64,000 bases of DNA. Origin: a virus. Below, piece by piece: positions 3,550 to 24,572 of the stretch. Location: the IMG/VR virus record IMGVR_UViG_3300030419_003252, positions 20,544 to 84,543 of that record; one strand, 5' to 3'. How positions within the stretch are numbered: position 1 is the first letter of the stretch; every line of letters starts with the position of its first letter. Made by a program: the position numbers and the translations under genes. The notes beneath the pieces were generated by a model. That model saw nothing but the letters and a program-made list of their open reading frames with translations, did not search any database and was not told where the DNA came from.

Positions 3550-3571
3550 CTAAATGTACTACGAATAAAAT
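3550..3571 (+). repeat. 22-bp post-fibre motif copy 1 (CTAAATGTACTACGAATAAAAT)
   Basis: 21/22 identical to copies at 6432, 7717 and 24568(-); starts 4 nt after the stop codon. Confidence 0.9.
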
Positions 3572-3594
3572 ATATGTAATATCAATTAAATAAA

Positions 3595-3933
3595 ATGGCT
3601 GTTGTTTGGAATGTAGTTGCCTTAGATCGTGCTCCTACAGAAGGTTCTCTTGCTGATGTCGTTAAAACTGTACATTGGACTGCTCAAGATTCAGAAACTG
3701 TAGGTTCTGGTGATTCTGCTGTTACTCATACAGGTTCTTCTTATGGTTCTATTTCATTAGGTGCTGCTGATGCTAGTAATTTCACAGCATATGATTCAAT
3801 TACTAAAGACAATGCAGTTGCTTGGGCAAAAGCTGCTCTTGGTTCTGATCAAGTTACAGCCATAGAAACAGGAGTTGCGGCACAGATTACTGAGTCGAAA
3901 ACACCGACCTCTAAAACTGGTGTCCCTTGGTAG
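3595..3933 (+). CDS. Fibre-associated small protein (assembly/chaperone-like)
   Basis: Cyanophage-type family (WNVVALDR...VHW...GVPW) that typically follows fibre genes. Confidence 0.6.
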   Translation: MAVVWNVVALDRAPTEGSLADVVKTVHWTAQDSETVGSGDSAVTHTGSSYGSISLGAADASNFTAYDSITKDNAVAWAKAALGSDQVTAIETGVAAQITESKTPTSKTGVPW

Positions 3934-3969
3934 GATTTGATATATAATTAAAATAGTTTTTAAAGAGTC

Positions 3970-4164
3970 ATGCCTTCCATAGACGAAAGAATCAGTACAT
4001 TAACTGAAGAATTAAAAGGAGCTGTTGAAAAACATAATCAAGCTTTAGAAGTTGTTAATACTGAAAAAGAAAAAGCATTTGGTCTTCAAAAACAGCTTGA
4101 ACTACTAAATGAAATGAAAGCAGAAGAGAATCCAGAAGAAGCAACAGTAACTGAAGTTGTTTAA
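3970..4164 (+). CDS. Small coiled-coil protein
   Basis: 64 aa heptad pattern, in operon context. Confidence 0.6.
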   Translation: MPSIDERISTLTEELKGAVEKHNQALEVVNTEKEKAFGLQKQLELLNEMKAEENPEEATVTEVV

Positions 4165-4220
4165 ATATTCTCGCTAGAGTTAGTCAATTTAGAATAGTTA
4201 AGAGTTAGTGGTATGGAAGC

Positions 4221-4880
4221 TTGTCTTACATTGGACAAAGACCTGTTGTTGGTAGATATACCAAGTTAGATCAGATTAATACTGGTTTTAATGGTAATAC
4301 TGCTACGTTTAATTTAACTGCTGGTAGTCAAGCAGTTTTACCAGGTACAGAGCAAAATTTATTATTGTCGTTAGGTGGTGTAATACAGGAACCAAAAACA
4401 GATTTCACAATTTCTGGTTCACAAATTACTTTTACCACTGCACCTGTTGCTAATACAACATTCTTTTGTGTTGTTTTTGGCGACATGCAATCAATTGGGC
4501 AACCAAGTGATGGCACAGTTATACCAGCTAGTATTGCAAGCACAGGAGATTTTACTTTTCCTGCTGATATTAAATCTGATGGTACTGGAGGAGTTAAAGT
4601 TCCTGTTGGTAATACAGCACAACGACCTTCTAATGCAGCTGGATATATAAGATATAACAGTCAAATATCTAAATTTGAAGGTTATGGATCTAGTTGGGGA
4701 CTATTAGGAGGTGGTGCAACTGGTGGTGGAGCAGATAAAGTTTTCGTAGAAACAAATCAAGATATAACAACGTCTTATACATTGACTACAAATTTTAATG
4801 CAATGACTGCAGGTCCAGTAGACATTGCAGCATCAGCTACTGTCACTGTCCCAGCTGGGGCTTCTTGGGTAATTGTTTAG
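4221..4880 (+). CDS. Tail fibre/baseplate-associated structural protein
   Basis: TTG start, SYIGQRP N-terminus, GVIQEP..DFTISGSQITF, GYIRYN..FEGY and C-terminal W.IV motifs common to marine phage fibre proteins. Confidence 0.7.
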   Translation: MSYIGQRPVVGRYTKLDQINTGFNGNTATFNLTAGSQAVLPGTEQNLLLSLGGVIQEPKTDFTISGSQITFTTAPVANTTFFCVVFGDMQSIGQPSDGTVIPASIASTGDFTFPADIKSDGTGGVKVPVGNTAQRPSNAAGYIRYNSQISKFEGYGSSWGLLGGGATGGGADKVFVETNQDITTSYTLTTNFNAMTAGPVDIAASATVTVPAGASWVIV

Positions 4881-4888
4881 GAGATACT

Positions 4889-6427
4889 ATGGCACTCACA
4901 CTTAACGGAACAACAGGACTTTCAGGTATTGTAGGTAGTGCAGGAACACCAGCATTACAAGGAGGTGATACCAATACTGGTTATTTTTTTGGTACAGATA
5001 CTTTAGGTTTAAGTACAGGTGGTACTCAAAGACTTCAGATTGATTCTAGTGGAAATATAAAACTAGGTTCAGGAGCTACTCAAACGTTAGCTATAAAAGA
5101 TTATGGATATAGTGGAACTTACAAAAATATAATGATTGGAAATCCTGGTTCAAATGTAGGATCAGTAGGTATATGCGTAGATGTTTCAACAATATCTGGA
5201 GGTAATTTTGCAGCTCAACATCAGGCAATATTAGGCAAAAATGGATTTCTTATGCCTAATGAAGCAGGTGATAATTATATTGGAGTATTACGTAGAGATT
5301 CAAGTGCAAATAAACTTTATATTGGTCCAGGTATATCAAGTGGTCTTACAAGTGGTCCTTTAACTCTTGAAACTTCATATGTAGGTATTGGTACAACAGC
5401 TCCTACAGCAGAATTAGAAATTTTTCATGCTACTGATCCAGAAATACATTTAAATATTAATACTCATGGTGATGTAGGAAAAATACTGGGTGATGCAGAT
5501 GGCTTAACATTAACTGGAAACGGAAGTAGCAACCAAATTAGATTTAAAACTAATAATGAGCACCGAATGCGTATAGATTCCAGTGGGAGACTCTTAAAAG
5601 GTGTTCTTAGTTCCGAAGCATCAAGAAGTAATACAAGTACAAGAAATCCACACGTTCAACTTTCAAGTCCTTGGTCTAGTGGATTAGGTAGTACGTCAAT
5701 TACTTGTACAGATGACTATCCAATTCTATTTATTAATAGTAATGCAAATTACGTAGATAATGCTGGAGCAGGTGTAATAACATTTAGTATCAAAGATGGT
5801 GCAGGTAATTATTGCAATACTGCTGAAATAAGATCTCAAATAGATGGTAGTCCAGGTAATGATGATTCCCCTGGAGAATTATCATTTAGAACAACTGCTG
5901 ATGGGTCTTGTCAGCCTACTGAAAGGTTGAAAATCCATAGAAATGGAAATGTTGAAATTAATGATGGTGATTTAATAATAGGAACTGCTGGTCACGGTAT
6001 TGACTTTTCTCAAACTAATTCTTCTGAAACAGGTGTTACCGTTGATGAAGAGGTTTTAGATCATTTTGAAGAAGGAACCTGGACACCAACTCAGCCTACT
6101 GTAGGTTGGTATAGTGGTACAGAAATAGAAGGAAAATACCAACGAGTTGGACATTGGGTTACAGCTAGTTTTATTGTTAGATTTGCGAGTAATGCTAGTG
6201 CTATTGCTGGTTATATAGATGGGCTTCCATATGTTAGTGCTGGAGCTAATACTGAATATAAGTATGGTGGTTCTGTTTCATACACTACTGATAGTAATGT
6301 TAATAGTTTTTTAGTTGAAAATGCTACTGCTCGAATACATTTATATAACGATACTGGTGGGGGTATTCAATTAACTCATTTAGATGATGATTATGTAAGA
6401 GGAACAGTTATATATAGAGTCGCATAG
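4889..6427 (+). CDS. Tail fibre / receptor-binding protein 2
   Basis: ATG at 4889 (MALTLNG) after GGAG; VGIGTT repeat; GIDFS...LDHFEEGTWTP...YQRVGHWV tip domain. Confidence 0.8.
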   Translation: MALTLNGTTGLSGIVGSAGTPALQGGDTNTGYFFGTDTLGLSTGGTQRLQIDSSGNIKLGSGATQTLAIKDYGYSGTYKNIMIGNPGSNVGSVGICVDVSTISGGNFAAQHQAILGKNGFLMPNEAGDNYIGVLRRDSSANKLYIGPGISSGLTSGPLTLETSYVGIGTTAPTAELEIFHATDPEIHLNINTHGDVGKILGDADGLTLTGNGSSNQIRFKTNNEHRMRIDSSGRLLKGVLSSEASRSNTSTRNPHVQLSSPWSSGLGSTSITCTDDYPILFINSNANYVDNAGAGVITFSIKDGAGNYCNTAEIRSQIDGSPGNDDSPGELSFRTTADGSCQPTERLKIHRNGNVEINDGDLIIGTAGHGIDFSQTNSSETGVTVDEEVLDHFEEGTWTPTQPTVGWYSGTEIEGKYQRVGHWVTASFIVRFASNASAIAGYIDGLPYVSAGANTEYKYGGSVSYTTDSNVNSFLVENATARIHLYNDTGGGIQLTHLDDDYVRGTVIYRVA

Positions 6428-6431
6428 TTAT

Positions 6432-6453
6432 CTAAATGTATTACGAATAAAAT
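6432..6453 (+). repeat. 22-bp post-fibre motif copy 2 (CTAAATGTATTACGAATAAAAT)
   Basis: 4 nt after TAG; identity with copy 3 extends over TTATCTAAATGTATTACGAATAAAATGTATTTAAG. Confidence 0.9.
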
Positions 6454-6473
6454 GTATTTAAGGGATTGATATT

Positions 6474-7712
6474 ATGGCACTTAGACTTCGGGGAGCTACA
6501 TCTGGTTATATCGAGTTAAAAGCTCCTGCATCTGCTGGAGATAATACTTTAACTCTGCCAACAAATAACGGAGGTGCTAATCAACTTTTAAAAATAGATG
6601 GTTCAGGAAATTTAAGTTGGCAAGCAAATCTTACTTTTGATGGAACACAATTAAATGTCAAGGGATCAGGAACAGATATTTTAAAGATTGAATCTACTGA
6701 TGCTGGTGCTCAAGGAACAAATTTAATCTTACAGCATAGTCCTGGTGCAGGAAATATGGCTGCTAATGATGTTATTAGTTTGCTTCAATTTAATGGTGTA
6801 GACGATAGCAATAATCCTACTACATACTCTTCAATTCGAGCAGTTGCAACTGATGTTTCTAATAATTCTGAGAAGGGTGATTTAACATTCTTTACTCGTA
6901 ATGGTAGTACTTTTGCTGAATGTATGCGTATAAATTCTAATGGTGATTTAAATCTTGGAAATAATCCAACCAATCAATATGGATATAAATTAAATATACA
7001 AGATAGTGCAATTTTATATGCACAGACTGCATCAAATAATGGAACAGAACTGAAGTTATATTTAGATCACGGAAATACAGTTGCTAATTTTGGAACAGTA
7101 TCAACATCTCATTTAGCATTTGTAACAGCAAACACAGAAAAAGTTCGTATTACATCTGATGGTGATTTAACTATTGATAACGGTGATCTAAAAATAGGAA
7201 CAGCTGGCAAAGGTATTGACTTTAGTATCAATTCTGATGGTTCCAGAGCAGTAACTACTAATGGAAATCTATTTGACGACTATGAAGAAGGGACATTTAA
7301 TGCTCAATTAGGAGGAGCAACTAATCATGGTACACATGAAATAACTGGAGGTGGTACTTATACAAAAATAGGTAGAAAAGTATATATGCAAATATCATTT
7401 CAAAACAGTGATTTAAATGATGGTGCTTCTGGTCAAGTAATAATTAAAAATTTACCATTTACTTTTGTTGATTCAACTGTTAATAGCAGTCATGTTTGTG
7501 CTGGAGTAAGTGCTGATTTTGTTACTACTAATGTTACCTATCCTCATAGTGGAGACATGAACCGATACGTTTGGCAATTAATAGCTTCTGCTGGTCACAT
7601 TAAAGGATATAGAGTTAATGATGGAGGCAGTATGACAGATTGGGATGCTAGTCATTGGGTAGCATCTAGTATGGAACTTAGACTTAATATTAGCTCATTA
7701 ACAGCAACTTAA
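6474..7712 (+). CDS. Tail fibre / receptor-binding protein 3
   Basis: LRGATSGYIELKAP N-terminus; GIDFS...FDDYEEGTF...YTKIGRKV tip domain. Confidence 0.8.
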   Translation: MALRLRGATSGYIELKAPASAGDNTLTLPTNNGGANQLLKIDGSGNLSWQANLTFDGTQLNVKGSGTDILKIESTDAGAQGTNLILQHSPGAGNMAANDVISLLQFNGVDDSNNPTTYSSIRAVATDVSNNSEKGDLTFFTRNGSTFAECMRINSNGDLNLGNNPTNQYGYKLNIQDSAILYAQTASNNGTELKLYLDHGNTVANFGTVSTSHLAFVTANTEKVRITSDGDLTIDNGDLKIGTAGKGIDFSINSDGSRAVTTNGNLFDDYEEGTFNAQLGGATNHGTHEITGGGTYTKIGRKVYMQISFQNSDLNDGASGQVIIKNLPFTFVDSTVNSSHVCAGVSADFVTTNVTYPHSGDMNRYVWQLIASAGHIKGYRVNDGGSMTDWDASHWVASSMELRLNISSLTAT

Positions 7713-7716
7713 TTAT

Positions 7717-7738
7717 CTAAATGTATTACGAATAAAAT
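7717..7738 (+). repeat. 22-bp post-fibre motif copy 3
   Basis: 4 nt after TAA; identical to copy 2. Confidence 0.9.
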
Positions 7739-7758
7739 GTATTTAAGAGACTGAGATT

Positions 7759-9405
7759 ATGGCAACACTTAAAGTCACAAATATAAAGAACGATGGTTTT
7801 GCTGGTGATCAGCTTTATCTTAAATCAGATGGAAAAATTGGTATAGGTACAGCAAGTCCAGGACATAAATTAGTTATTTCTCAAACGAATAGTGGTGGTA
7901 TAGCAGCAATTCATTTACCTGTTGATGAAAGTACAATATTAGGTCCAAATGCAAATACCTATTTAAAAATGGGTGGAAATGTTGTATTAGGAGCGAATGG
8001 TCAAATAGATCTTACAACTTCAGGTGCTTCAAAATTAACAATAAAAAATGATGGAAATGTAGGTATAGGGACAACAAATCCAACTAATTTATTAGAAATC
8101 TCAGGTGGATTAGTTAGATGTCTTGGTACTGCTTCTGCAAGATTTACAGTTAATAATGGCGCAGCAGAAGGCTTTTTTGGATGGAATAGTGGAACGTTAT
8201 ATCTTGGAGGGGCTTCTGCATTATTAAATATAACTGCATCAGGTAGTAACAATATTCAATTAGAGACTAATAGTTCTACAAGGATGACTATTAAATCAGA
8301 TGGAAATATAGAAGTAGGTGGTAATTTAAAAACTAATAATTTACCTGGTAAAAATTTAGTTATTAACGGTGCGATGCAAATCGCTCAAAGAAGTTCATCA
8401 TCTTCAACTATAGGATATCATACTGTTGATAGGTTTCAAATAGGATATGGAGGGCATGATGAAGTTCTTACAGCTAGTCATCATAGTTTAACTTCTTCTG
8501 ATACTGGACCTTGGGAAGAAGGATTTAGAAAATCTTTCCATGTACAGAATGGAAACCAGACAAGTGGTGCTGATGCAGGAGATTACTCTCAAATAATTTA
8601 CAAACCTGAAGGGCAAGATATAAATCGCTCTGGGTGGAATTTTACAGACCCTAATAGTAAGATAACTCTTTCTTATTGGATTAAAGCTAGTGTTGCACAG
8701 AACTACTATGGATTCATAGAAGCAGGTGGTCCAACACGAATATTTGGTTGGGAAACAGGAGCATTAACTGCTAATACTTGGAAAAAAGTAACTGTTACTA
8801 TTCCAGGCTACGCTAGTTTAGCGATTCCTGATACTAGTGGAACTGCCTTCAGCATTGCCTTCATTCCTTATTATGGGACTAATTATACTGCTGCTAGTGG
8901 TCGAGATGTAGGACAATGGTACACAGCCTATAATTATCTTCCTACTAATACATCTACTTGGTGGACTACTAATGATTCAACATTTGAAATAACAGGCGTT
9001 CAGCTTGAAGTTGGATCTATAGCTACAGAGTTTGAACATAGATCGTATGGTGATGAATTAACTAGGTGTCAGAGATATTTTGTTTCTTATGGTAAGACAA
9101 CAGGTTTTCATATTGGAATGGGAACAGCATATAGTGCAAGTGCTTTAAATATTAGTGTTCCTTTACCAGTGCCTATGAGAGCTGACCCGACAGTTGCTAA
9201 AATTGCAAATGGTAGTAGTGAATGGTTACATGCATATGTTGGAGCAACAGGAACAATCAGTGATCCTACTCCACAATTAGGAGAATCTGGAATGAGTGTT
9301 TATCGTGTATATGTTCCTAGTGCTGGAAGTGGTTGGACCGCTGGAGATTCTTTTTGGTGTCAAATACGTCCTGATGCTAGATTGACTTTTAGTGCTGAAT
9401 TATAA
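7759..9405 (+). CDS. Tail fibre protein with carbohydrate-binding-like domain
   Basis: GIGT repeats followed by NLVINGAMQIAQR...TGVQLEVG..AT.FEHRSYGDEL.RCQRY domain typical of marine phage fibres. Confidence 0.8.
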   Translation: MATLKVTNIKNDGFAGDQLYLKSDGKIGIGTASPGHKLVISQTNSGGIAAIHLPVDESTILGPNANTYLKMGGNVVLGANGQIDLTTSGASKLTIKNDGNVGIGTTNPTNLLEISGGLVRCLGTASARFTVNNGAAEGFFGWNSGTLYLGGASALLNITASGSNNIQLETNSSTRMTIKSDGNIEVGGNLKTNNLPGKNLVINGAMQIAQRSSSSSTIGYHTVDRFQIGYGGHDEVLTASHHSLTSSDTGPWEEGFRKSFHVQNGNQTSGADAGDYSQIIYKPEGQDINRSGWNFTDPNSKITLSYWIKASVAQNYYGFIEAGGPTRIFGWETGALTANTWKKVTVTIPGYASLAIPDTSGTAFSIAFIPYYGTNYTAASGRDVGQWYTAYNYLPTNTSTWWTTNDSTFEITGVQLEVGSIATEFEHRSYGDELTRCQRYFVSYGKTTGFHIGMGTAYSASALNISVPLPVPMRADPTVAKIANGSSEWLHAYVGATGTISDPTPQLGESGMSVYRVYVPSAGSGWTAGDSFWCQIRPDARLTFSAEL

Positions 9406-9407
9406 CT

Positions 9408-9569
9408 ATGGCTGATTATAAATTAAACATCACACCTCCTTCTGAGACTGTTAATTCTGTTTTTAGAAAATCAGATAATGTTTGTATTCCTTTTGCAATA
9501 GGAAATAAAGATTATGATGATTATTTAGAATGGGTAGCAGAAGGAAATACTCCTGATCCTGCTGACTGA
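9408..9569 (+). CDS. Small fibre-associated protein (53 aa, not in ORF track)
   Basis: MADYKL...IPF...N.DY..YLEWVAEGNTPDPAD, a family usually found after RCQRY-type fibres. Confidence 0.75.
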   Translation: MADYKLNITPPSETVNSVFRKSDNVCIPFAIGNKDYDDYLEWVAEGNTPDPAD

Positions 9570-9614
9570 TAAGTCTATTTCTCATATAATTAGGACATCA
9601 ATTACTTTTTCATT

Positions 9615-9866
9615 ATGCAAAAAATAATTAATGTACTTTCTATTGCGTCTTTCGTTATATCTGCTTCCGTTGTTGGTGCTGGTGTTTACATATATGCAAA
9701 TAAGGATGCACTCCTAGAAAGTGCTAAAGAAAAAATTATGAAGCAAGTAGGAGCTGCAGCTGTAGGAGAAGCTTTAAAAAATCTTCCAACTCCAGAACTA
9801 CCTAGTATGACTGGTCCTGTTGCACCAAGAAGTGGAAGAAGTGGGCTAGGAGTTCCTCAGTTCTAA
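9615..9866 (+). CDS. Membrane-anchored cyanophage protein
   Basis: N-terminal TM helix (MQKIINVLSIASF...), Pro-rich tail. Confidence 0.75.
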   Translation: MQKIINVLSIASFVISASVVGAGVYIYANKDALLESAKEKIMKQVGAAAVGEALKNLPTPELPSMTGPVAPRSGRSGLGVPQF

Positions 9867-10648
9867 TGCCTGAAATACCAGAAATTGGTATCCATAATAT
9901 TGAAATAAGAACAACAGAAATACCAGATTACGACTCAATTCTTAAGTTAAATCTTCCTAGAACTCCTCCTGTAACTTTAAGTATTGGATCTCCAATTATC
10001 GAGTTACCTGGGTGTGTTGAATATAATTCTGGTAACAAGGAATCTAATCAATTAGTTGATGATGATCCGAGAGGTAATCGAATCTTATGTGATGGTACAG
10101 TTCCTAGTTATGACCCCATAGATTACACACCAGAGAACTTAGTACTCACTAAAGCAGCTGAAGTACCAATGGTTCCATTAGATAATAATGAGATAGCTGA
10201 ACCTATTAATCCAGAATTACCTCAACCATCTCTCCCTGAAATTATTTGTCCCCCAAATGACGCTCCTATAGTCGGTACTAAGGTTGAGGGAAACAAAAAA
10301 ATAAGTGGATATGAATTACAGAATGGTCGTTGTATTACTCTTTACGAAGAAGTTCCAATTATTGAACAAGTAGTTACAGCATTACCTACAGCTGGAGCTG
10401 TAACGACTACTGCATCTATTGCTCTTGTGGCAACGTCATCGGCAGTCCTAGCAAAGCCCCTGGCTGATCTTGTTCTGAAGGCAATAAAGCCTCTGATAAA
10501 GACTTCAATGAAGAAGATTCAGAAACTTCTTGGGAAGAAACCGAGGACTTTGAATCGAGCTGAGATTGTTGCGAATCAGTATCGAGAGAAGAAAGGTCTT
10601 CCTGCTCTGAAGGAACTGAAGAAGAAGAAGAAGAAGGAGAAGAAATAA
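9866..10648 (+). CDS. Cyanophage protein with Cys pairs and C-terminal TM/Lys-rich tail
   Basis: TAATG coupling to previous gene; PIIELPGCVE, ILCDG motifs; hydrophobic segment then poly-Lys. Confidence 0.75.
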   Translation: MPEIPEIGIHNIEIRTTEIPDYDSILKLNLPRTPPVTLSIGSPIIELPGCVEYNSGNKESNQLVDDDPRGNRILCDGTVPSYDPIDYTPENLVLTKAAEVPMVPLDNNEIAEPINPELPQPSLPEIICPPNDAPIVGTKVEGNKKISGYELQNGRCITLYEEVPIIEQVVTALPTAGAVTTTASIALVATSSAVLAKPLADLVLKAIKPLIKTSMKKIQKLLGKKPRTLNRAEIVANQYREKKGLPALKELKKKKKKEKK

Positions 10649-11297
10649 TATGTTGATGTTGTGGAATCACTCCATGAGGATTGGTTACAACAATATCGGC
10701 ACAAATTTGAAATGATGGTGATTTTGGATGAAATGAAACGCCTAACCTTTTTTGCTCGGCACAGTGCTTGAGTCGTGCCATTTCAAAATCCAACCGTTTA
10801 TTAGCCAATAGCTGTTTAGTTAAATCTGTTTGAGTATTAGCTGCTCTCAAACAACCTTCATGGTGACGTTTATCTAATGGTATAGATATGGTTGCACTAA
10901 TACCTAATGAAATATTGTTATTTGCTTTCTGCCCAGTCCTTGTAGGAACGTAATACAAGATAGAGCCTGGATTATTCAGATTACCATCATCATCCGTTGT
11001 CATGTCATAGACAGGCGAATCCCAGTAAGATTCATAAGGATCTTTCCAAGAATTACTTCCTGTCACAAATGGCGTGATATTTAACGTTGGTCCTTGACAC
11101 GAGACTCCATTCCCATACGAATTAGTAACGTATGGTCCTTGGAGGACTTGGATGGCTTGATTTGTAACGCTGCCACTACTATTAGCAACAGGAGCAGCGG
11201 AAGCACTAACGCCACCAACGCTTTCTGCACGTACTGACTGGGGGAATAGTGATACCGCATTGAGCAGAGCCAATAAGATATATTTTACTGACTGAAT
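10416..11297 (-). CDS. Exported cyanophage protein (start codon uncertain)
   Basis: Signal-peptide-like KYILLALLNAVSLFPQSVRA then GGVSA.A.PVANSSGSVTNQA; no ATG at the expected start. Confidence 0.7.
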   Translation of the reverse strand: MQSVKYILLALLNAVSLFPQSVRAESVGGVSASAAPVANSSGSVTNQAIQVLQGPYVTNSYGNGVSCQGPTLNITPFVTGSNSWKDPYESYWDSPVYDMTTDDDGNLNNPGSILYYVPTRTGQKANNNISLGISATISIPLDKRHHEGCLRAANTQTDLTKQLLANKRLDFEMARLKHCAEQKRLGVSFHPKSPSFQICADIVVTNPHGVIPQHQHIISSPSSSSSSVPSEQEDLSSLDTDSQQSQLDSKSSVSSQEVSESSSLKSLSEALLPSEQDQPGALLGLPMTLPQEQ

Positions 11298-11710
11298 GTT
11301 GAAACGGTATCTGTGACTGATGTTATGTCTGTTGTACGAGTTATTATAGTTTGCGACTTCATCCCTGGTTGACTGACAGTTGTTGTTAATTGCCAAGGCA
11401 AATCTGGATTCTTGATTGTAAAATCTGGCATTTGATTTGCATCCAAACTTGTCCACGTTGTAACCACCCCATTAACGGTATTAGATGTCGAACTTGCAGT
11501 AGGAACTAAACTATCTGCACTTGTAGTTATGTTATTTCCTGTAACTACATATTGCCACCCTGTTTGATAATCTATCACGTTAATCGTTTCGCTTACTTTA
11601 CTAGTAGTCTCCGTATGAGATGTCATCGAACCACTTTGAAAATTTGGCGTGACGGGAACAGAAAAAGCAGGGATTGGTGCTAACAATAAAAGCAGTAAAA
11701 GCCGCTTCAT
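11285..11710 (-). CDS. Exported Thr/Ser-rich cyanophage protein
   Basis: Classic signal peptide MKRLLLLLLLAPIPAFS; PVTPNFQSGSMTS. Confidence 0.8.
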   Translation of the reverse strand: MKRLLLLLLLAPIPAFSVPVTPNFQSGSMTSHTETTSKVSETINVIDYQTGWQYVVTGNNITTSADSLVPTASSTSNTVNGVVTTWTSLDANQMPDFTIKNPDLPWQLTTTVSQPGMKSQTIITRTTDITSVTDTVSTFSQ

Positions 11711-11715
11711 GACTG

Positions 11716-12234: not shown

Positions 12235-12257
12235 TTACATTACTTAATTAAAGTCTA

Positions 12258-12713: not shown

Positions 12714-12740
12714 TGAAGTATTCTTTCTAACTACAATATA

Positions 12741-12881: not shown

Positions 12882-12915
12882 AAGTAAACCTCCTTAGTTA
12901 TGTTCCTCTTTAATT

Positions 12916-13380: not shown

Positions 13381-13416
13381 TTGTAATATTTAACTGCTAA
13401 TGATTAGTATAGGATT

Positions 13417-15204: not shown

Positions 15205-15221
15205 TATTGTTTAACACTAGT

Positions 15222-16191: not shown

Positions 16192-16228
16192 AAACCAAGA
16201 ATGAGATTAAAATTTCTTAACTCTAGAG

Positions 16229-16993: not shown

Positions 16994-17075
16994 AAAAATT
17001 ATTATTACTTAATTAGTATAGACAAGAAACCAAGAATGAAAGTGTTATTTAATTTATAGTTAAGAAAAAAATAGG

Positions 17076-17435
17076 TCATTCTGGGTTTTTCTGCACACGC
17101 CCATAGTCATCTTCAATACGTACAATGTCGTTTTCAGAAATTTTTTCCCCAAATTGAACTTCTATAAGAACTAAATCTGTTTCGTCTGCTTTGATACGAT
17201 GCGTTCCCATGACAGGGATATGAATACATTTACCTGTTCTAGCTTTTTGCCATATACCATTTGCAAAAACTTCTCCTACTCCTGATGCAATAATCCAAGT
17301 TTCACTGCGATGCTTATGATACTGAAGACTAAGTTGCTGCCCTTTTTTTACATTAATAATTTTGGCTAGATAGCCAGGTCCTTGAAATAAAGCTTGCCAC
17401 CAACCCCAAGGACGAAAGGTAATCTTTCTAAGCAT
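17076..17435 (-). CDS. Mannose-6-phosphate isomerase type II cupin domain (ManC C-terminal-like)
   Basis: RPWG, LSLQYH.HRSE.W, EVQ.G...E.DIVR.EDDYGR. Confidence 0.9.
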   Translation of the reverse strand: MLRKITFRPWGWWQALFQGPGYLAKIINVKKGQQLSLQYHKHRSETWIIASGVGEVFANGIWQKARTGKCIHIPVMGTHRIKADETDLVLIEVQFGEKISENDIVRIEDDYGRVQKNPE

Positions 17436-18681
17436 TACCTATTTTCCTCTTCTTACGATTTTTTTTCTTAAGTGGAACTTTTTTTACGGAATGATCTACA
17501 CCTTTAATAGCATCTTCAAATATACCTGCAAATTGAGCACCAATAACTTCCCAAGTAAATTGTTTTTCTAAAGCTCTTTCATAACAAAGTTCAGCTGTTG
17601 CTTGTAGTTTTTTCGGATTTTTATATAGTTCATTTAGTATTTCTGTTAAATGATCTGTAGAAGGACAAGGCATTTCCCTACCGAAATTAGTATCAGTATC
17701 TATATGATCACAACGTATAAGTTGACCATAGCCTTCAAAAATTTCTTTACAAGATGTATGTCCTGGTACAACTTGAGCAACTTTACAAGCAGCTTGTTCA
17801 AAATTAACAAGACCCCAACCCTCACCTTTGCAGGTATTCACACCAACATCAGCTGCGTTATAAATCGTATTGAGCATTTCTAATTCAACACTTGGAGGAC
17901 CATCAACATCTGCTGTCAAAATGATTCTGTTATTTGGATCTAATTTATTTCGTTTCATTTCTCGATCAAAGAGATGCATAATATCCCAACCTTGATCCTT
18001 TTTACCCATATGTAAGTACAACTGGGTATTGGGTTTATCTCTTGCAAACTTAGCGAAGGCAGCAATGGTTATATCAATTCGTTTACGGAATTGGTTTCGA
18101 TTACCATTGAAGACAATAAATATATCTTCTTTTATATTTAATTTTTTTCTAGCTTCCGCTTTATCTATAGGAAAGAATTGCCCTGGTGTTACACCATGAG
18201 GAACAACAGCTATTGGTTTTGTAATACCACCTTGAATAAATTCATAAGCACCAAACTGTGTATAAGAAATAACTCCATCCCAATCATTAGCAGTATCAGC
18301 TAAACAACCAATCCAACCATAAGAATCCATTGGTGAATAACCAACAAATTTAAATTTTTTATCTTTATGAAAATCTTGTATACGTCTATATTGTTCATTA
18401 ATGATCCACATATCATTAATGGTAAAAACTAAATCTGGTTTTTCTATTTGAACAATTTCTCGAATTCGATCTTCTCCAAACGGTGCAGTTTGAAATCTAT
18501 TCGATGAAGGATACATCTTATATTTCTTTTGAAAGGGTGTTGGATCACCCCACCAGTTATGGGCTAAGACAACAATATTGAATTGTTTTGCTAGGAAAGG
18601 TAAAACATTTTCTGTTACACGAGCGAATCCAGTTTTTGCAGCTATATCACCACACCATAAAAGCTTTGGTTTTTTTGCCAT
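17428..18681 (-). CDS. GT-B (family 4-like) glycosyltransferase
   Basis: TGFARV, VPHGV, NRNQFRK, YNAADV...EGWGLVNFE (Ex7E). Confidence 0.9.
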   Translation of the reverse strand: MAKKPKLLWCGDIAAKTGFARVTENVLPFLAKQFNIVVLAHNWWGDPTPFQKKYKMYPSSNRFQTAPFGEDRIREIVQIEKPDLVFTINDMWIINEQYRRIQDFHKDKKFKFVGYSPMDSYGWIGCLADTANDWDGVISYTQFGAYEFIQGGITKPIAVVPHGVTPGQFFPIDKAEARKKLNIKEDIFIVFNGNRNQFRKRIDITIAAFAKFARDKPNTQLYLHMGKKDQGWDIMHLFDREMKRNKLDPNNRIILTADVDGPPSVELEMLNTIYNAADVGVNTCKGEGWGLVNFEQAACKVAQVVPGHTSCKEIFEGYGQLIRCDHIDTDTNFGREMPCPSTDHLTEILNELYKNPKKLQATAELCYERALEKQFTWEVIGAQFAGIFEDAIKGVDHSVKKVPLKKKNRKKRKIGNA

Positions 18682-18738
18682 TACAATTCTATTTCTGTAT
18701 TAAATATACATAGATTAGACAGAAATAGTAATAATTAA

Positions 18739-21315
18739 TTACCGATCTTCTCTTTCTTTCTTATCAAGAACTTCACCATATTCTTCTCTCCATTTTTCTT
18801 TATTCAATCCAACTTCAATTAATGAAGGGTAATCTTGATACTTGGGATCAGAGGTACGACAAGCAATGTTCTTAACTCTCATGCCTCTACGATCTTTAAA
18901 TTTATAAACATTTAGTCTTAATTGATGAACACAAACATCCATTAATAGTGTTTCAAATCTGCTACGGCCAAGGATATTACTATTTGATCCTTTAGAAAAT
19001 TCACAATAGCTTGCATAAAGCCACTTATCCCAAGACATATAAACGTTAGATGATCCTGGTTGAGAACTTTTAGCTAAACCAATTGGAGCAGTAGTATCTG
19101 GATCAAATACTAAACAATGATCCATCCAATCCATAATCTGATTTGATTTAAGGATTTGTTCTCGATGATGTTTAGCAAAGAACTTAACTTTATTATTTGT
19201 TTCCATTAGATACTCCCGCATTTCCATCTCGGTCATATCTAATAACCAATTCACCAATCCTGGAAGTAATGAAGCGAAATCACCAAATGGTGTTCCACTG
19301 TCATCCATATCAATTAAGGTGCGTTGTTCAGCTGAACTGCCAGTGAAAGGTCTATCAAAAGGAATAGTAAGACGACGACGTGCAAGCCCAGATGTAGGAT
19401 CTGTCGTTTGTATTGGTTCATTTGCAGTTATCATTACCAACCCATTAAATTTAAACGGCTTTAATGAACCAGATTGAAATTTACGTTCATTCCGAATTAA
19501 ATCACGACCAGTAATTGCTTTTAATACTGAGACTGAACCACCATATCTTTCAACATCATTGAACAAAAGTAATTTCTTTTTATACAAGTTAGCTGTTTCA
19601 AATCTACTCTTTTCTAAGTGATCAAGAGAAGAGATGATAGCGTTTGTATCTCCTACTAATGCATGAGCAAGGTTGGAATAAGTAGACTTACCAGACTTAC
19701 CTGGACCAACAATTTCAACGAATTTCTGTATATCTGAATGACTTAATAGCACAGCACGTAACCATGCTCTAAGGACTTGTACACGTCCCCAGCTACCATC
19801 TTGTACATGTTTTAACCATTTAATAATTGGCTCACAAGAAGCTGAAGGATCATAAGCATATGGCAATTGTTGAGTCATATGCATATCTCTATCAAATGGT
19901 ATTAATTCTTTTGTCTCAACTATTAAAATTCCGTTTGTAAAAAGTAGATGTTCATTACCTTCGTACCAATCATCAAATATGACACTAATTTTTAATTGCT
20001 CTAATACATCATTTACTAAATTCATACTGTACCCATTAGGTAGCAGTTCTTTCTTTAACATCTCTAATCGACCTTTTATTTCACCTCTCATTTCAGTATC
20101 AGAGAGTGCTGTCCATAATCCTTTACTCTCTACCTCATAAAGTAAGAAACAATTTTGTGCTTGACTATATCTTAAATTTCCTTGATAACTCTGAAGTAAA
20201 ACACTTGCAATAATATCGGAAGAAGGATTCCTTGGCTTTTGTTCTCGACCTTTTGAATTAATTCGAGGATTACGAATCACCTTTTTGGTTGGAGCTGGAG
20301 TTGTAACTGGATCGAATTCAGTGAGCATTTTTGATACCTTGTCTAATGTTTCTTCGTCAATTTCACGATTGATTACCTTGTGATCTTCTGAAGGTCGCCA
20401 ACCATTTTGTTTTGCATGATGGAACAATGAACCAAGTGTTCTTGCTCCTCCTTTGTTGAAAGTACGCCAACGATTTTGACATTCACCTTCTTTATATTTT
20501 TCAGACTGTTTAGACCATTGATCCCAATCATCTAATAGAGATTCATCTAATTGATGCAAGGACTGACCAACAGTAATCCAAATATCGTAGTCATCAGCTG
20601 CTTCTGGAGGCATAGCCCACATAGCTTCTGATGCAAGTTGCATGTCTCTTTCGAGAGCAGCTTCAGCATTAATAGCAAAGCTTGGACCTACTATTCTAGT
20701 CGTTTCCTTTGCTGGTACACCTTGTTTTACGTTTTTGTTAATGATGCAATCAAGTAACCATTCAGGAAATTCAGGTAACTTTGAGATCCATTCAAATCCT
20801 TCTTCTGGAGCTGTAAAATATCCATCCGTATCGGGATGTAAACCCATCAAAACTCCTTGATGCTTTTTCCAAAGAATTTCTAGTTTTTCTTTTGCAGTCT
20901 CTGCATGCCAGGTATATTTATTGCGAACAAAGTGTTTATGTTTTTCTCTTGGTAGACGATAGAGCTTTCTTTCCCTACCTTCTTTTCCACTAAGAATAGT
21001 TAATGTTTTAGGTAATGCCTGATCTAATTCTTTATCAGATAAACCTTCAATCAGGTTGTATACACTAGGGCCATCAACATCAACCCATACCAAACCATAA
21101 GGGTGATTAAAAACTGGACCCGATATAAGACCGATGGCTTTGCATCGCCCTGCAAGTATTTCAGCTTCAATTTCATGGAGACTACAAGGATTGTTTTGCC
21201 AACCAGAGATATATGGATCTTTATTGCCTCCTAATGGAGTAAGAGGCCAGTCAGCTGAAATGAATTCAAGTTTTACTTCGCCTGGTCTGATTGATTTTGG
21301 AGTTGAGTTAGTCAT
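18739..21315 (-). CDS. Primase-helicase: bifunctional Prim-Pol + PriCT-2 + D5-like SF3 helicase
   Basis: WVDVDG primase motif, YDIWITVGQSLH...WS..S.KY PriCT-2, Walker A GPGKSGKST, LKAITG.D, RRR. Confidence 0.9.
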   Translation of the reverse strand: MTNSTPKSIRPGEVKLEFISADWPLTPLGGNKDPYISGWQNNPCSLHEIEAEILAGRCKAIGLISGPVFNHPYGLVWVDVDGPSVYNLIEGLSDKELDQALPKTLTILSGKEGRERKLYRLPREKHKHFVRNKYTWHAETAKEKLEILWKKHQGVLMGLHPDTDGYFTAPEEGFEWISKLPEFPEWLLDCIINKNVKQGVPAKETTRIVGPSFAINAEAALERDMQLASEAMWAMPPEAADDYDIWITVGQSLHQLDESLLDDWDQWSKQSEKYKEGECQNRWRTFNKGGARTLGSLFHHAKQNGWRPSEDHKVINREIDEETLDKVSKMLTEFDPVTTPAPTKKVIRNPRINSKGREQKPRNPSSDIIASVLLQSYQGNLRYSQAQNCFLLYEVESKGLWTALSDTEMRGEIKGRLEMLKKELLPNGYSMNLVNDVLEQLKISVIFDDWYEGNEHLLFTNGILIVETKELIPFDRDMHMTQQLPYAYDPSASCEPIIKWLKHVQDGSWGRVQVLRAWLRAVLLSHSDIQKFVEIVGPGKSGKSTYSNLAHALVGDTNAIISSLDHLEKSRFETANLYKKKLLLFNDVERYGGSVSVLKAITGRDLIRNERKFQSGSLKPFKFNGLVMITANEPIQTTDPTSGLARRRLTIPFDRPFTGSSAEQRTLIDMDDSGTPFGDFASLLPGLVNWLLDMTEMEMREYLMETNNKVKFFAKHHREQILKSNQIMDWMDHCLVFDPDTTAPIGLAKSSQPGSSNVYMSWDKWLYASYCEFSKGSNSNILGRSRFETLLMDVCVHQLRLNVYKFKDRRGMRVKNIACRTSDPKYQDYPSLIEVGLNKEKWREEYGEVLDKKEREDR

Positions 21316-21497
21316 GGGATTTGATTAGGTTTGAAGGTTACTTCAAAATGCTTGTCTGGGAAGACCTCTTCACTTAATAGCTTGAATGCGTGAAGATGCA
21401 TAGAAGTTGGCAAATGAAAACAATCCCCTTCCGTCGCATCTTTCATGCGATTTTGAAGGCTATTCATCCACTCACCAACGGAAACGTGTATTTCCAT
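21312..21497 (-). CDS. Hypothetical protein
   Basis: ATGA coupling to primase. Confidence 0.6.
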   Translation of the reverse strand: MEIHVSVGEWMNSLQNRMKDATEGDCFHLPTSMHLHAFKLLSEEVFPDKHFEVTFKPNQIP

Positions 21498-21576
21498 TGG
21501 GGTTATTTTTTTCGTGTTCTTTTATCCTAATCCGAAGAAACCAAAATAAATTGTTCAAAATATTAAGGTTCAATTT

Positions 21577-22431
21577 TTAAATTAGATCAGGATCGTAAAC
21601 ATTACAATTATCAATTTGTTTATAATATTCTTCTACAATTTTTAACCAATCTTTTTGTAGCATATCTAAATAACGTCTTGAAATTTTAAATACTTGAGTT
21701 CTTATAGGAGTTGAAACTAAGACAGCAGCCTGTTGAACTTTTATATTTAAAGTCTGTTGTATAGCTAGATCATAGGCAGCTAATTGTTTACAACATTTTT
21801 TAAATTTCATATGACCACTTAATAAATCTCTCCATTCTTTTGATCCTTTTTCAAATTGTTTAGGCCACTTTCTACTATATGGTTTTACACTTGTTTTTAA
21901 ATCTGCAAGTGTAAGTTTGTTATTAGCAACGCCAATAATATCTGGTGCACCAGCCCAAGCTCTACCTTCTTTATCACAGCCCCAAACACGAGCAACATCA
22001 TCAGCTCCAAGAGTAAATTTATATTTATCTAATACAGGAGATTCAGCCCAAAGAACTTCTGAAAACTGATCAAGTATTGGAGGCATACCACCCCAGTAAT
22101 CCTCATACTCAGTAGGTATTTCAGGTTCTTTATTTCCTTTAAGATATTGTTCCATACCAAAATGGATGGCTGTTCCACGTTCAGCTGCTTTTTCTTTTAC
22201 ACCTGGATTAGCCTTAGACCACATTTCTAATTTTCTTTTATTTGCTTCTGAAGCTGTTTCTGAAATAATTGTTGTTACTGAAGGAGCTGGTCCTGTGAAT
22301 AGTGGAGTTGTATAGTGCCGCTTACCATTAACAGTTATCCGAGCTGCAGTTTTATTTATATCCCGCATTAACGCAGGGTTTATCTCCTGATCTTCTTTAT
22401 CACATTCGAGAATATTAGTTGAACTCATCAA
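21577..22431 (-). CDS. PD-(D/E)XK exonuclease (phage/MGME1-like)
   Basis: PSVTTII, RGTAIH, AGAPD, DLKTS, QLAAY. Confidence 0.85.
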   Translation of the reverse strand: MMSSTNILECDKEDQEINPALMRDINKTAARITVNGKRHYTTPLFTGPAPSVTTIISETASEANKRKLEMWSKANPGVKEKAAERGTAIHFGMEQYLKGNKEPEIPTEYEDYWGGMPPILDQFSEVLWAESPVLDKYKFTLGADDVARVWGCDKEGRAWAGAPDIIGVANNKLTLADLKTSVKPYSRKWPKQFEKGSKEWRDLLSGHMKFKKCCKQLAAYDLAIQQTLNIKVQQAAVLVSTPIRTQVFKISRRYLDMLQKDWLKIVEEYYKQIDNCNVYDPDLI

Positions 22432-22548
22432 GGAGATTAATCTTTGCGTTTACGCTATCGTCCTTGTCAAGTATAGGAGGAAAAATAATATTTTATCTGA
22501 CAAATTTTAGAAATTAGTTATATTCAAAGAGGTAATCATTAGAGCAAA

Positions 22549-23136
22549 ATGACTTTTTGGAATGAATATTTCGAGGAAGTATCACAAAATTTAGCAGGAA
22601 GATCTGGTAGTTTTAAACAAATTTTTAAGTATTTAGATAGTCTTAAATGTAAAGAGGTATTCATTGTAGAGACAGGCTGCTACAGAGAAGAAGACAATTA
22701 TAGTGGTGATGGTTGTTCTACATTATTGTTTGACAATTATGTACAACACAGAGGTGGAAATGTTATATCAATTGATATTAATCCTAAAGCATGTGAGCTT
22801 GCCAGAAGTAATACGAGTAAGCAAGTTGAAGTTATTTGTGGTGACTCAGTAGAAGAACTTGGTTATTTAGAAGGAATGGTAGATTTACTTTACTTAGATT
22901 CATTTAACATCACAGACTGGGGAAATGATTGGGAATCATCTTCACATCATTTAAAAGAATTATTTGCAGCTAAAAATATTATCAAACCAGGAACTTTAAT
23001 TGTTGTAGATGATAATTTAAGAGCAGCAGATGGCAGACTACTAGGGAAAGGTCGCCTAATTGGTGAACTAATGGAAGCATTAGATTTGAAACCTTACATA
23101 GATGAATACCAAATAGGATGGATTTGGAAAGAATAA
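22549..23136 (+). CDS. Class I SAM-dependent methyltransferase
   Basis: IVETG, SIDI, GDS, DLLYLDS, IVVDD. Confidence 0.8.
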   Translation: MTFWNEYFEEVSQNLAGRSGSFKQIFKYLDSLKCKEVFIVETGCYREEDNYSGDGCSTLLFDNYVQHRGGNVISIDINPKACELARSNTSKQVEVICGDSVEELGYLEGMVDLLYLDSFNITDWGNDWESSSHHLKELFAAKNIIKPGTLIVVDDNLRAADGRLLGKGRLIGELMEALDLKPYIDEYQIGWIWKE

Positions 23137-23152
23137 TACTTAAGTATTAATC

Positions 23153-23419
23153 ATGAGCTGGAAAAGCAGTAAAAAAAGAATACGAAAGAATAGAGAAAAA
23201 TTAATAAAGCATAAGAAAACATTATGCTGTAAAGCTTGTGGTTTAGATGATTATCGTGTCTTAGAATTTCATCATCTTGGAGATAAAGAAAACAATATTT
23301 CTCGCATGGTAGGAGTTGGCTACAGCTGGAAAAGTATTGTAAAAGAGATGGATAAATGTATTGCTTTATGTAGTAACTGTCATCGTATTGAACACTGGAC
23401 AGAAGTTGAATCAGCTTGA
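23153..23419 (+). CDS. HNH endonuclease
   Basis: CKAC...LEFHH...KC..LCSNCHRIEH. Confidence 0.85.
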   Translation: MSWKSSKKRIRKNREKLIKHKKTLCCKACGLDDYRVLEFHHLGDKENNISRMVGVGYSWKSIVKEMDKCIALCSNCHRIEHWTEVESA

Positions 23420-23830
23420 TTGAGCTATAGCAGCTTGATGTGGTGAATCAGCTTGGCTAATAAAATTTTCTTTTGAAGGTTGCTTTAATTCTTCAACGCA
23501 TGCATCTTCACATTCTTGATCATTAATATCACATTCAGCAGAACAATTTAAATACTCATCTACTGGATCAGAAGTTGGTGCTGGTTCTAATTTAATTTCA
23601 CCACTTTCTACTTTTTGTACAAATTCCATACGATCAAACCATCCATCTCGCTGTGCTTTACCTGCTTCATTTAAACAGAAGTCTTCCCATAAACCAGTAA
23701 AAAGTCCATGCATTGGATGATCAGGATTATCTCGTCCTGCACATTTGTACATATGATTTTGAAAAATTACTCTACGGTTATTTTCTTCTAACCATTCACG
23801 AGTTCCAAGTTGATCAGCTTTGTTTGTCAT
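23411..23830 (-). CDS. Cyanophage protein with acidic four-Cys C-terminal module
   Basis: GRDNPDHPMHGLFTGLW domain plus DPVDEYLNCSAECDINDQECEDACVEEL. Confidence 0.7.
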   Translation of the reverse strand: MTNKADQLGTREWLEENNRRVIFQNHMYKCAGRDNPDHPMHGLFTGLWEDFCLNEAGKAQRDGWFDRMEFVQKVESGEIKLEPAPTSDPVDEYLNCSAECDINDQECEDACVEELKQPSKENFISQADSPHQAAIAQSS

Positions 23831-24020
23831 TTTCCTCAATAGCTATAAGGGAAGTATAGACGTTTTTAACTGCAGGATTTATATCAAATAAAACTTCATG
23901 TAGTTCTGCTTCAATATATTTAATAAATTCTTGTTGAGTTTTGCCTTTAAAAGGATCATAATCTAAATCTAAATCAACAGAAAAGCTTAAAGTCAAACGA
24001 GGTATTGGAATGGAATCCAT
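23814..24020 (-). CDS. Hypothetical protein
   Basis: Operon context. Confidence 0.6.
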   Translation of the reverse strand: MDSIPIPRLTLSFSVDLDLDYDPFKGKTQQEFIKYIEAELHEVLFDINPAVKNVYTSLIAIEENDKQS

Positions 24021-24064
24021 TTAATTTACTAATGATATATTTACGATAGCAGTCTTTAATTTCT

Positions 24065-24196
24065 ATGGATGGAGCAGTAGATGCTTGGCATAGTTTAAGT
24101 TGGTTTGATGGAGTCGCATTCTCAATCTGGCTTGGTATTTTGTACTATGGCAAATTGAGAATAGATCTCCATTTTGAACGTAAGCGTAAGAAATAA
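24065..24196 (+). CDS. Small single-TM protein (43 aa)
   Basis: MDGAVDAWHSLSWFDGVAFSIWLGILYYGKLRID... Confidence 0.6.
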   Translation: MDGAVDAWHSLSWFDGVAFSIWLGILYYGKLRIDLHFERKRKK

Positions 24197-24505
24197 TTAC
24201 TCAGCTGGTTTCTCAGCAATTAATTTAGCTTTCCACGCATTTTTTACGTCTGTGGTCCAAGCTGCTGTGCAAATGCTTTTTACTTCGTCTGCAATATCAG
24301 TTGTACCATCTGGTTCTTTTGATAAAGGATTATCAACAAGATTATCAGATGCATCAAGAGTACCTGGATCAAGTACAAATCTATGAAATGAACGAGTTAG
24401 TTCAACACCATCTTTTTTGATGACTGTTGCTTTTCTAACTTGTACATGTTTGTATTGTCCTACGACTTCTATTTTGTCGTATTCAATTGTTTCAGTTAAT
24501 GCCAT
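24197..24505 (-). CDS. Fibre-associated small protein
   Basis: MALTETIEYDKIEVV...QVR..T.I..DG.EL.RSFHR...ICTAAWT; family that follows DYEEG-type fibres. Confidence 0.75.
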   Translation of the reverse strand: MALTETIEYDKIEVVGQYKHVQVRKATVIKKDGVELTRSFHRFVLDPGTLDASDNLVDNPLSKEPDGTTDIADEVKSICTAAWTTDVKNAWKAKLIAEKPAE

Positions 24506-24546
24506 TAGGAAAATCCCTCCGAATTAAACAGGTTTAGGCATTCAGT

Positions 24547-24568
24547 ATTTTATTCGTACTACATTTAG
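24547..24568 (-). repeat. 22-bp post-fibre motif copy 4 (CTAAATGTAGTACGAATAAAAT)
   Basis: Inverted relative to copies 1-3; 4 nt after TAG of 24573..27032. Confidence 0.9.
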
Positions 24569-24572
24569 ATAT

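Follow-up and report, generated by a model that had tools for sequence, protein, structure and literature searches.

A 22-bp box repeated at the tail-fibre junctions of an S-EIV1-like marine cyanophage: a probable upstream control element at the border of exchangeable fibre modules

The 64,000-nucleotide (nt) stretch of viral DNA analysed here ("the window", bases 20544-84543 of the single 84,543-bp viral contig of IMG/VR record IMGVR_UViG_3300030419_003252) carries four copies of a 22-bp, A/T-rich box, CTAAATGTAnTACGAATAAAAT, each just behind a tail-fibre gene. Comparison with related phages shows that the box stands at a near-invariant distance ahead of the gene that follows it, that the receptor-binding tips of the fibres have been reassorted among different N-terminal parts, and that DNA homology between relatives resumes at the box after breaking off within the fibre genes. 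Our favoured explanation, in which we place somewhat better than even confidence, is that the box serves the gene next after each fibre as a promoter or other upstream control element and that, being the same at all of these junctions, it also provides the right-hand homology anchor for modular exchange. In this explanation the box would be active as a promoter, and some crossovers would fall inside it.

The genome is rated 100% complete by CheckV. Its large terminase is 80% identical in amino acid (AA) sequence to that of Synechococcus phage S-EIV1, with nothing else close, and its genes for primase, glycosyltransferase, family A polymerase and single-stranded DNA-binding protein stand in an S-EIV1-like order. 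No near-identical DNA was matched among phages, S-EIV1 being the closest isolate by terminase, and neither the box nor the protein hinge described below was found in the first 40 kb of S-EIV1, so the feature belongs to a marine sub-lineage that is known only from metagenomes. Four of the fibre genes (F1, F2, F3 and F5) close the structural arm, and F4 is on the opposite strand within the replication arm, between the polymerase gene and those for exonuclease and primase. F1 to F4 all match PHROG tail-fibre families or a family shared with them, and none of their four proteins matches a Pfam family above its curated cut-off. The boxes and the genes that flank them are the following (window positions).

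Box copy 1, 3550..3571, + strand: 4 nt past the F1 stop, 23 nt before the DUF7936 start
Box copy 2, 6432..6453, + strand: 4 nt past the F2 stop, 20 nt before the F3 start
Box copy 3, 7717..7738, + strand: 4 nt past the F3 stop, 20 nt before the F5 start
Box copy 4, 24547..24568, - strand: 4 nt past the F4 stop, 41 nt before the start of the phrog_6228 gene
Fibre gene F1, 1587..3545, + strand: 652 AAs, N-terminus MPYIGN.., EEGT at AA 519 (nt 3141-3152), tip of 130 AAs
Fibre gene F2, 4865..6427, + strand: open reading frame (ORF) of 520 AAs from a TTG, EEGT at AA 402 (nt 6068-6079), tip of 115 AAs; translation probably starts from the ATG of MALTLNG, position 4889
Fibre gene F3, 6474..7712, + strand: 412 AAs, N-terminus MALRLRG.., EEGT at AA 271 (nt 7284-7295), tip of 138 AAs
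Fibre gene F5, 7759..9405, + strand: 548 AAs, N-terminus MATLKVTN.., non-EEGT tip ending ..SAEL, no box behind it
Fibre gene F4, 24573..27032, - strand: 819 AAs, EEGT at AA 688 (nt 24960-24971), tip of 128 AAs ending ATYMAA
DUF7936 (phrog_7802) gene, 3595..3933, + strand: 112 AAs, the downstream partner of copy 1
phrog_6228 gene, 24197..24505, - strand: 102 AAs, the downstream partner of copy 4

CTAAATGTAnTACGAATAAAAT matches the window exactly four times (chance expectation 0.03; none of 100 shuffled sequences reaches four), and the whole 84,543-bp genome has no fifth copy with four or fewer mismatches, the next best sites having 5-6. Every copy begins 4 nt past the stop codon of a fibre ORF (F1, F2, F3 and F4), as an initial annotation of this DNA had reported; copies 1-3 are direct repeats and copy 4 is inverted. 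There are 21 fixed positions in the box, 17 of them A or T, and its palindromy is limited to GTAnTAC. The four fibres in front of the boxes have a common hinge (NDYEEGTF, DHFEEGTW, DDYEEGTF and DHYEEGTW) located 119-142 residues ahead of the C-terminus and followed by tips that are only 19-30% identical to one another; this arrangement too is as first described, as is the lack in F5 of both the hinge and a box behind it.

The annotation had also taken the box to be anchored to the upstream stop codon and to be specific to fibres with DYEEGT tips, and neither claim holds in related genomes. Relatives were collected from an IMG/VR scan for the exact motif, from homologues of the conserved gene at 4221-4880, from homologues of both small downstream genes (DUF7936 and phrog_6228), and from an exact 21-mer scan over metagenome contigs; all are metagenome contigs, many of them short, and several of the metagenome loci (L228, L255) duplicate IMG/VR contigs. 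In the window and its IMG/VR relatives together, the box (with 0-4 mismatches) lies 23 nt ahead of the DUF7936 start in seven of seven cases, 20 nt ahead of F3-like starts in six of six and of F5-like starts likewise in six of six, and 41 nt ahead of the phrog_6228 start in five of six, whereas the gap between the upstream stop and the box is -4, 3, 4, 5, 15-23, 56 or 164 nt. The metagenome scan returned 40 copies, 34 of them at fibre junctions. Where the downstream start lies within the locus (31 junctions) it is without exception 20 nt (24 copies, in front of 15 F3-like and 9 F5-like genes), 23 nt (3) or 41 nt (4) from the box; the upstream gap in the same collection is -4, 0, 4-7, 15-25 or 59 nt, and equals 4 in only 6 of 32. 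The gene upstream of these 32 copies is a fibre with an EEG[TS] hinge in 20 cases, a fibre with another tip in 10 and a small ORF in 2, so that 12 of the 32 follow something other than a hinge-bearing tip. The remaining 6 of the 40 copies sit in DNA without tblastx similarity to the genome, and are taken as chance or unrelated matches; by a rough estimate, a few such A/T-rich 20-mers are expected at this database size.

The box is always on the coding strand of the following gene. It is a 5' element of four genes (F3, F5, DUF7936 and phrog_6228), each directly behind a fibre gene, and since the upstream gap varies among relatives, the fixed 4-nt gap of the window is a property of one common version of the junction and not of the motif. 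The genes that follow the boxes had been called unrelated to each other; this stands for DUF7936 and phrog_6228, whose proteins show no similarity, but not for F3 and F5, which are both fibre genes and are preceded by near-identical 46-nt spacers. The box was not found before portal, capsid or other late genes, and a degenerate motif scan of IMG/VR gave mostly chance A/T-rich matches, with nothing beyond the related loci among the matches listed. A separate type of box, CTATAATTA-like, occurs 25-35 nt before several late-region starts (window 1204, 3970, 9615 and 55244; genome 3927 and 19837); it differs from the fibre junction box and probably represents the promoter type in general use in the structural arm.

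The leader of the phrog_6228 gene is informative about the possible function of the box. A phrog_6228 homologue follows a large ORF in 68 of the 70 IMG/VR loci that have enough upstream sequence, and in 38 loci that ORF has an EEG[TS] hinge 90-190 residues from its end. In this wider family the spacer reads, in order, stop codon, small AGAC..GTCT hairpin, TATAAAC, GCCTAAACCTG, and a 5-bp hairpin whose loop carries GGAG. An invariant TAAACCTGTTT precedes the 5-bp hairpin, which has compensatory changes at all five pairs over 60 loci (UA/CG/AU and others) and may be a translational control element. Its place in the window is as follows.

5-bp hairpin with the Shine-Dalgarno GGAG in its loop, 24512-24525, - strand: 10-12 nt before the phrog_6228 start; also present in loci L143-L220

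When the spacers are aligned from the conserved leader, the motif's AATAAAAT occupies the position of TATAAAC, and some close relatives retain the AGAC..GTCT hairpin followed by ATAAATGTAGTACGAATAAAAT. Since the covarying hairpin is part of the leader at copy 4, transcription must start on its upstream side, close to the box. An A/T box that resembles a -10 element and keeps a constant place ahead of a structured leader is what a promoter would look like. Within the control region upstream of the following gene, the box would then be the conserved part that lies farthest 5', and most likely a promoter with the terminal (A)TAAAAT as its -10 element. That TAAAAT might be the -10 box of the next gene was part of the initial annotation, and the fixed spacing to the start codon fits this idea.

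The same position would also suit an element that acts in RNA with no promoter, such as an AU-rich translational enhancer, a standby site or a processing site in a polycistronic fibre mRNA. The A/T-richness of the box, its unvarying place on the coding strand 20-41 nt before a start codon, and a sigma-70 scan that lends a full promoter little support (below) all agree with such a role. An RNA element rarely needs 21 invariant positions, however, and the TATAAAC that stands at the equivalent place in the wider family looks more like a -10 element; we consider an RNA-level role unlikely, though less so than the other alternatives.

In a distant relative (L136) the F2-F3 and F3-F5 junctions carry a different exact 22-nt repeat, composed of a small hairpin plus TAAAAC.

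L136 repeat AGCCCGCAATGGCTTAAAACTA, L136 positions 9513-9534 and 10461-10482: 4-5 nt past the stop, 33 nt before the ATG

The junction boxes are therefore lineage-specific and yet uniform within a genome, which suggests a lineage-specific recognition factor, homogenisation by recombination, or both.

The tips behind the hinge form a recognizable family. In an alignment of 42 tips (the 4 of the window and 38 others) E9, E10, G11, G37 and P64 are invariant, and L5, Y8, Y33, V40 and Y137 are conserved in at least 90%. The domain after the hinge has about 115-150 AAs with the pattern YTKIGR.V ... GLPF ... TY, and it has a weak profile match (E 1.4e-4) to the C-terminal 120 AAs of a solved tailspike (6f7d/6f7k). 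The peptide pattern DDYEEGTW is present in at least 600 IMG/VR stretches, and 550 were confirmed as relatives; the word DYEEGT is absent from the open-access texts searched. The tip with the LDDYEEGTW hinge, which no Pfam family covers, is a very common unnamed receptor-tip family of T7-like, T4-like and S-EIV1-like cyanophages, usually found beside the same small gene: tip and phrog_6228 form a unit across IMG/VR loci L143-L222, and the pair of EEGT-tip fibre and phrog_6228 is also present in GenBank in the T7-like Prochlorococcus phage P-GSP1 (L223) and the T4-like P-TIM68 (L224). In a wider, probably podovirus, family (L174, L320 and 66 other loci) DUF7936 stands behind a gene of 60-85 AAs (mostly 66 AAs, MATPQELYDE..), which itself stands behind phrog_6228, so the two small genes found behind separate fibres in this genome are neighbours in one operon there.

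Homology among the four tips raises the possibility that a fibre gene was duplicated in tandem along with its 3' flank and that the boxes are a passive relic of this, without a function of their own, and the fact that the F2-F3 and F3-F5 junctions have a whole 46-nt spacer in common points the same way. The tips, however, have diverged to the low identities given above and the box is still exact; in addition, the box is retained at four junctions in many relatives with mosaic variants, and in the unrelated L136 lineage an exact repeat of another sequence stands at the corresponding places. We rate a passive origin as highly improbable.

Reassortment of the tips was analyzed in 17 complete hinge-bearing fibres from the window and from contigs of eight relatives. 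One cluster of tips (ATYMAA type, 56-95% AA identity) is found on four N-terminal types, F4 (in the window), F3 (in two contigs), F1 and F2; a second (VIYRVA type, 69%) on F2 (in the window) and F3; and a third (SYKVA type, 80%) on F2 and F5. Conversely, fibres with the same N-terminus often have tips that are only 18-34% identical, and of the 14 fibres having a best tip match of 40% identity or more, 9 have it on another N-terminal type. The DNA agrees: window 24547-25075, which comprises the box, stop codon, tip, hinge and about 100 nt before the hinge of F4, matches F3-like genes of two relatives (L005 and L003) at their 3' end with 88.7-89.8% identity, a match that stops exactly at the 3' end of the box, and window 5958-6479 is 79.4% identical to the 3' end of the F3-like gene of another (L004). 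Contigs from two other studies join window 6007 (the GIDF of F2) to window 7270/7272 (the LFDDYEEGT of F3) with 37-39 other letters between them, which is weak independent support. Fibre tips have been reassorted among N-termini in these phages, as the initial annotation had proposed; tip phylogeny is not congruent with the N-termini, near-identical tips occur on different N-termini, and a single tip cluster (56-95% identity) on as many as four N-terminal types.

Where the exchanged segments begin and end can be read from the similarity of the window to its relatives. Fibre-gene DNA is conserved with them only over the first 45-60 codons, and the high-scoring segment pairs (HSPs) on the N-terminal side end at about window 1748, 5036-5056, 6620-6645, 7800-8096 and 26905. 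Homology resumes between -19 and +2 nt from the 5' edge of the box in 17 of the 17 HSPs that enter downstream genes. With homology present only in the N-terminal codons and from the box onward, the replaceable unit is the shaft plus the tip, sometimes with a small ORF, and the tip is a sub-module of it, bounded on the left near the hinge and the GxGIDFS box. The expectation that each tip is bracketed by conserved DNA on both sides is therefore borne out at the right, where the replaced segment has its 3' edge at the motif, but not at the left, where only 8 nt of hinge DNA (GAAGAAGG) are exactly common to the four genes and synonymous sites vary. Since the hinge is conserved as protein and not as DNA, exchange between paralogues at the hinge within one genome is unlikely; the homologous genes of co-infecting relatives offer ample homology on both sides.

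Three other features of the fibre modules may be mentioned here. Stretches of about 30 nt encoding GIGTTSP-type shaft repeats are 93-97% identical to fibre genes of relatives at several places in F1, F5 and F4, and a gene with a tail-fibre N-terminal family match overlaps the start of F2. Behind non-hinge tips ending in ..AEL or ..EIS, a small ORF with the pattern Y(L/Q)xWVxxGN(T/M) begins 2-13 nt past the stop; it probably encodes a tip-specific assembly factor, in which case the exchangeable cassette of the non-hinge tip class would be the tip plus this ORF.

GIGTTSP-type stretches, window 2120-2150, 8052-8082, 25675-25706 and 26356-26386: candidate internal crossover boxes
Conserved fibre-module gene, 4221..4880, + strand: 219 AAs, phrog_18673 (tail fibre N-terminal part), overlaps the F2 start
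53-AA ORF, 9408..9569, + strand: starts 2 nt past the F5 stop, contains YLEWVAEGNTP
Small ORFs behind non-hinge tips: window 9408-9569; L144 4703-4921; L138 about 7503-7750

In the reading of the box as control element and homology anchor, each fibre would consist of a conserved N-terminal virion anchor of about 45-60 AAs, a replaceable shaft and tip and, in some cases, a small accessory ORF, and co-infecting related phages would exchange the distal modules by ordinary homologous recombination. The left crossovers would fall in the N-terminal anchor, in the repeated GIGTTSP-type shaft boxes or in the GxGIDFS/LDDYEEGTW hinge region, and those on the right in the junction box and in the gene conserved downstream of it. 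With the same box upstream of all four genes (F3, F5, DUF7936 and the phrog_6228 gene), any distal module could be placed before any of them without loss of their expression.

The clustering of breakpoints at the 5' edge of the box might instead mean that a phage nuclease, for example a free-standing HNH protein, recognises the box and makes breaks that stimulate exchange of fibre modules. A length of 22 bp, exact identity within the genome, asymmetry and lineage specificity would all be fitting for a nuclease recognition site, and the genome has a single HNH domain (PF01844, genome 10537-10653, E 1.1e-9); GIY-YIG was not found in it.

HNH gene, genome 10432-10800: about 122 AAs, free-standing, about 10.1 kb before the window start and far from the terminase gene

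Nothing ties this gene to the box, however, the nearest copy of which is about 14 kb away; in addition, a fixed spacing to downstream start codons is unexpected for a nuclease site, and self-cutting at four sites would need a protection, none of which was identified. A nuclease hot spot thus seems to us a long shot.

The inverted orientation of copy 4 had led to the proposal of a dedicated site-specific system in which the box is the crossover site of cassette exchange or shufflon-like inversion that swaps receptor tips. Four exact copies with one inverted are indeed what such a system would have, but most of what we find is contrary to it. No tyrosine recombinase (PF00589, Phage_integrase) and no serine recombinase (PF00239, Resolvase) was matched at E<=1 in the whole complete genome, which extends an earlier statement made for the window alone, and the searches were sound in that the PF00239 and PF00589 controls were positive in 13 and 14 of 14 genomes, respectively. 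Because the box lies after the stop codons, recombination between its copies changes only the following gene and never a fibre protein, so that an inversion would swap only downstream neighbours. All copies but one are direct repeats, GTAnTAC is the only palindromic part of the box, and in the two relatives that hold both fibre loci these stand to each other in orientation and spacing as they do in the window. Among the 15 of 130 joints listed from four sequencing runs (all in the form of Logan assembled contigs, which drop rare variants), none changes strand at a motif copy, a result that speaks neither for inversion nor against it; contigs of the probable source run start at 6433 and 7718, that is, at the repeat, as expected from an assembler break. 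In the other three runs depth was lower over the tips than over the N-termini, but contig depth cannot rank parts of a gene and carries no weight here. Reverse transcriptase (PF00078, RVT_1) has no match in the genome either, and a diversity-generating retroelement was rejected on that ground.

One contig does show a re-paired junction. In L254, a 2250-bp metagenome contig, an F4-type upstream flank and fibre are joined through the box to DUF7936 (left end 82.9% identical to window 27097-26923, right end 85.9% identical to window 3550-3790), and no close relative of its fibre was found in IMG/VR. The left and right partners of the box can therefore be re-paired, and the junction is as an exchange between copy 1 and copy 4 would make it, although the contig is short and the only one of its kind, and a genome laid out differently may lie behind it. 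Site-specific tip swapping is already largely refuted by the observations above, and a dedicated switch of any such kind strikes us as extremely improbable. The arrangement of L254 is of more interest for a somewhat bolder version of our own reading, namely that the box and its equivalents, such as the L136 repeat, are active, portable recombination adaptors, kept identical by exchange that a phage function initiates there, and that their promoter-like features are secondary. We give this version little credence, if more than we give a nuclease site or a relic. If it were true, any distal fibre module with its accessory ORF could be plugged in before any of the four downstream genes, and exchange would span two fibre loci on opposite strands, as arranged in L254.

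Several observations weigh against the box as promoter and homology anchor. Of the three + strand copies, a simple sigma-70 scan recognises copy 1 (TTAAAA-18-TAAAAT, 9/12) and neither of the others, and promoter-like sites are fewer in the region than in shuffled sequence. Exact identity over 21 positions exceeds the need of a host-type -10 element. As for factors that could explain a long specific promoter, sigma-70 region 2 (PF04542) has no match in the genome; phage RNA polymerase (PF00940) has none either, a weak result in that its control matched nowhere. The CTATAATTA-like box on other late genes means that the junction box would be a second promoter class. As to exchange, the single-strand annealing proteins ERF and RecT, and also YqaJ, have no match in the genome, the edges of BLAST HSPs are approximate, and breakpoints at the edge of the box could reflect selection for an intact control region instead of a crossover site. 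Finally, the junction counts are not independent events, because the sequences are related and several loci are duplicated. Sigma-70 support for copy 1 only, together with the 21 fixed positions, leaves room for a role in RNA or for a nuclease or recombination hot spot.

Host range is set by tail-fibre tips, and the comparisons above document, for five fibre genes of a little-studied S-EIV1-like marine lineage, which parts are constant, which are exchanged and where the borders between them lie. Among known systems, the G segment of Mu and the C segment of P1 (Gin and Cin) and the shufflons (Rci) need a site-specific recombinase and also crossover sites that lie within the coding region, where its constant part borders on the variable one. 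The present genome is like them in having several alternative fibre C-termini and one inverted repeat copy, and differs from them in that neither a recombinase nor crossover sites within coding regions were found; these defining features having been searched for, it is not a shufflon or a Gin/Cin-type switch. The box also fits the picture of classical fibre mosaics with conserved linkers. Exchange of the distal parts of T-even fibres at short conserved motifs, the "His boxes" of gp37 and gp38, was reportedly described by Tetart and co-workers in 1998, and Sandmeier is said to have drawn attention in 1994 to modular exchange of the distal parts of tail fibres.

The window resembles such fibre systems in its conserved N-terminal part and variable receptor-binding end, in the presence of the same adhesin module on different backbones, and in the conserved boxes at module borders. 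It differs in that the right border is intergenic and common to four different downstream genes, and in that the left box, the LDDYEEGTW hinge, is kept far more as protein than as DNA. A further example of modular tail-fibre exchange is reported by Trojet et al. 2011 (PMC3157838). In Alteromonas phages, host-recognition modules are reported to be common to distant families (Gonzalez-Serrano et al. 2023, PMC10579305), which is comparable to the fibre plus small downstream partner seen here in unrelated backbones (P-GSP1, P-TIM68 and this S-EIV1-like phage); the proteins differ, and a chaperone role for phrog_6228 would be hypothetical.

The nearest described concept is the PeSL (promoter-early stem-loop) cassette of T4-type phages, in which repeated promoter/terminator units mark places where unrelated segments have been exchanged (Arbiol et al. 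2010, PMC2839356; Comeau et al. 2014, PMC4122927). Like the box, a PeSL is a short intergenic sequence that recurs within a genome; the two are alike, too, in bordering segments in which close relatives differ, and in having been proposed to be regulatory signals as well as points of homologous exchange between otherwise unrelated sequences. As described, a PeSL is a strong sigma-70-like promoter with a terminator stem-loop whose activity was tested, whereas the element studied here is a 22-bp box that in this genome has no stem-loop, and no terminator-like hairpin lies at it, and is a putative promoter; PeSLs belong to hyperplastic early-gene regions of T4-like myoviruses and the box is confined to S-EIV1-like tail-fibre junctions; and the box has no sequence in common with PeSLs. 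If the box is confirmed as a promoter that insulates the downstream genes, the PeSL principle would extend beyond T4-type phages to structural modules, and the box would be a natural landmark for reading fibre mosaics in metagenomes.

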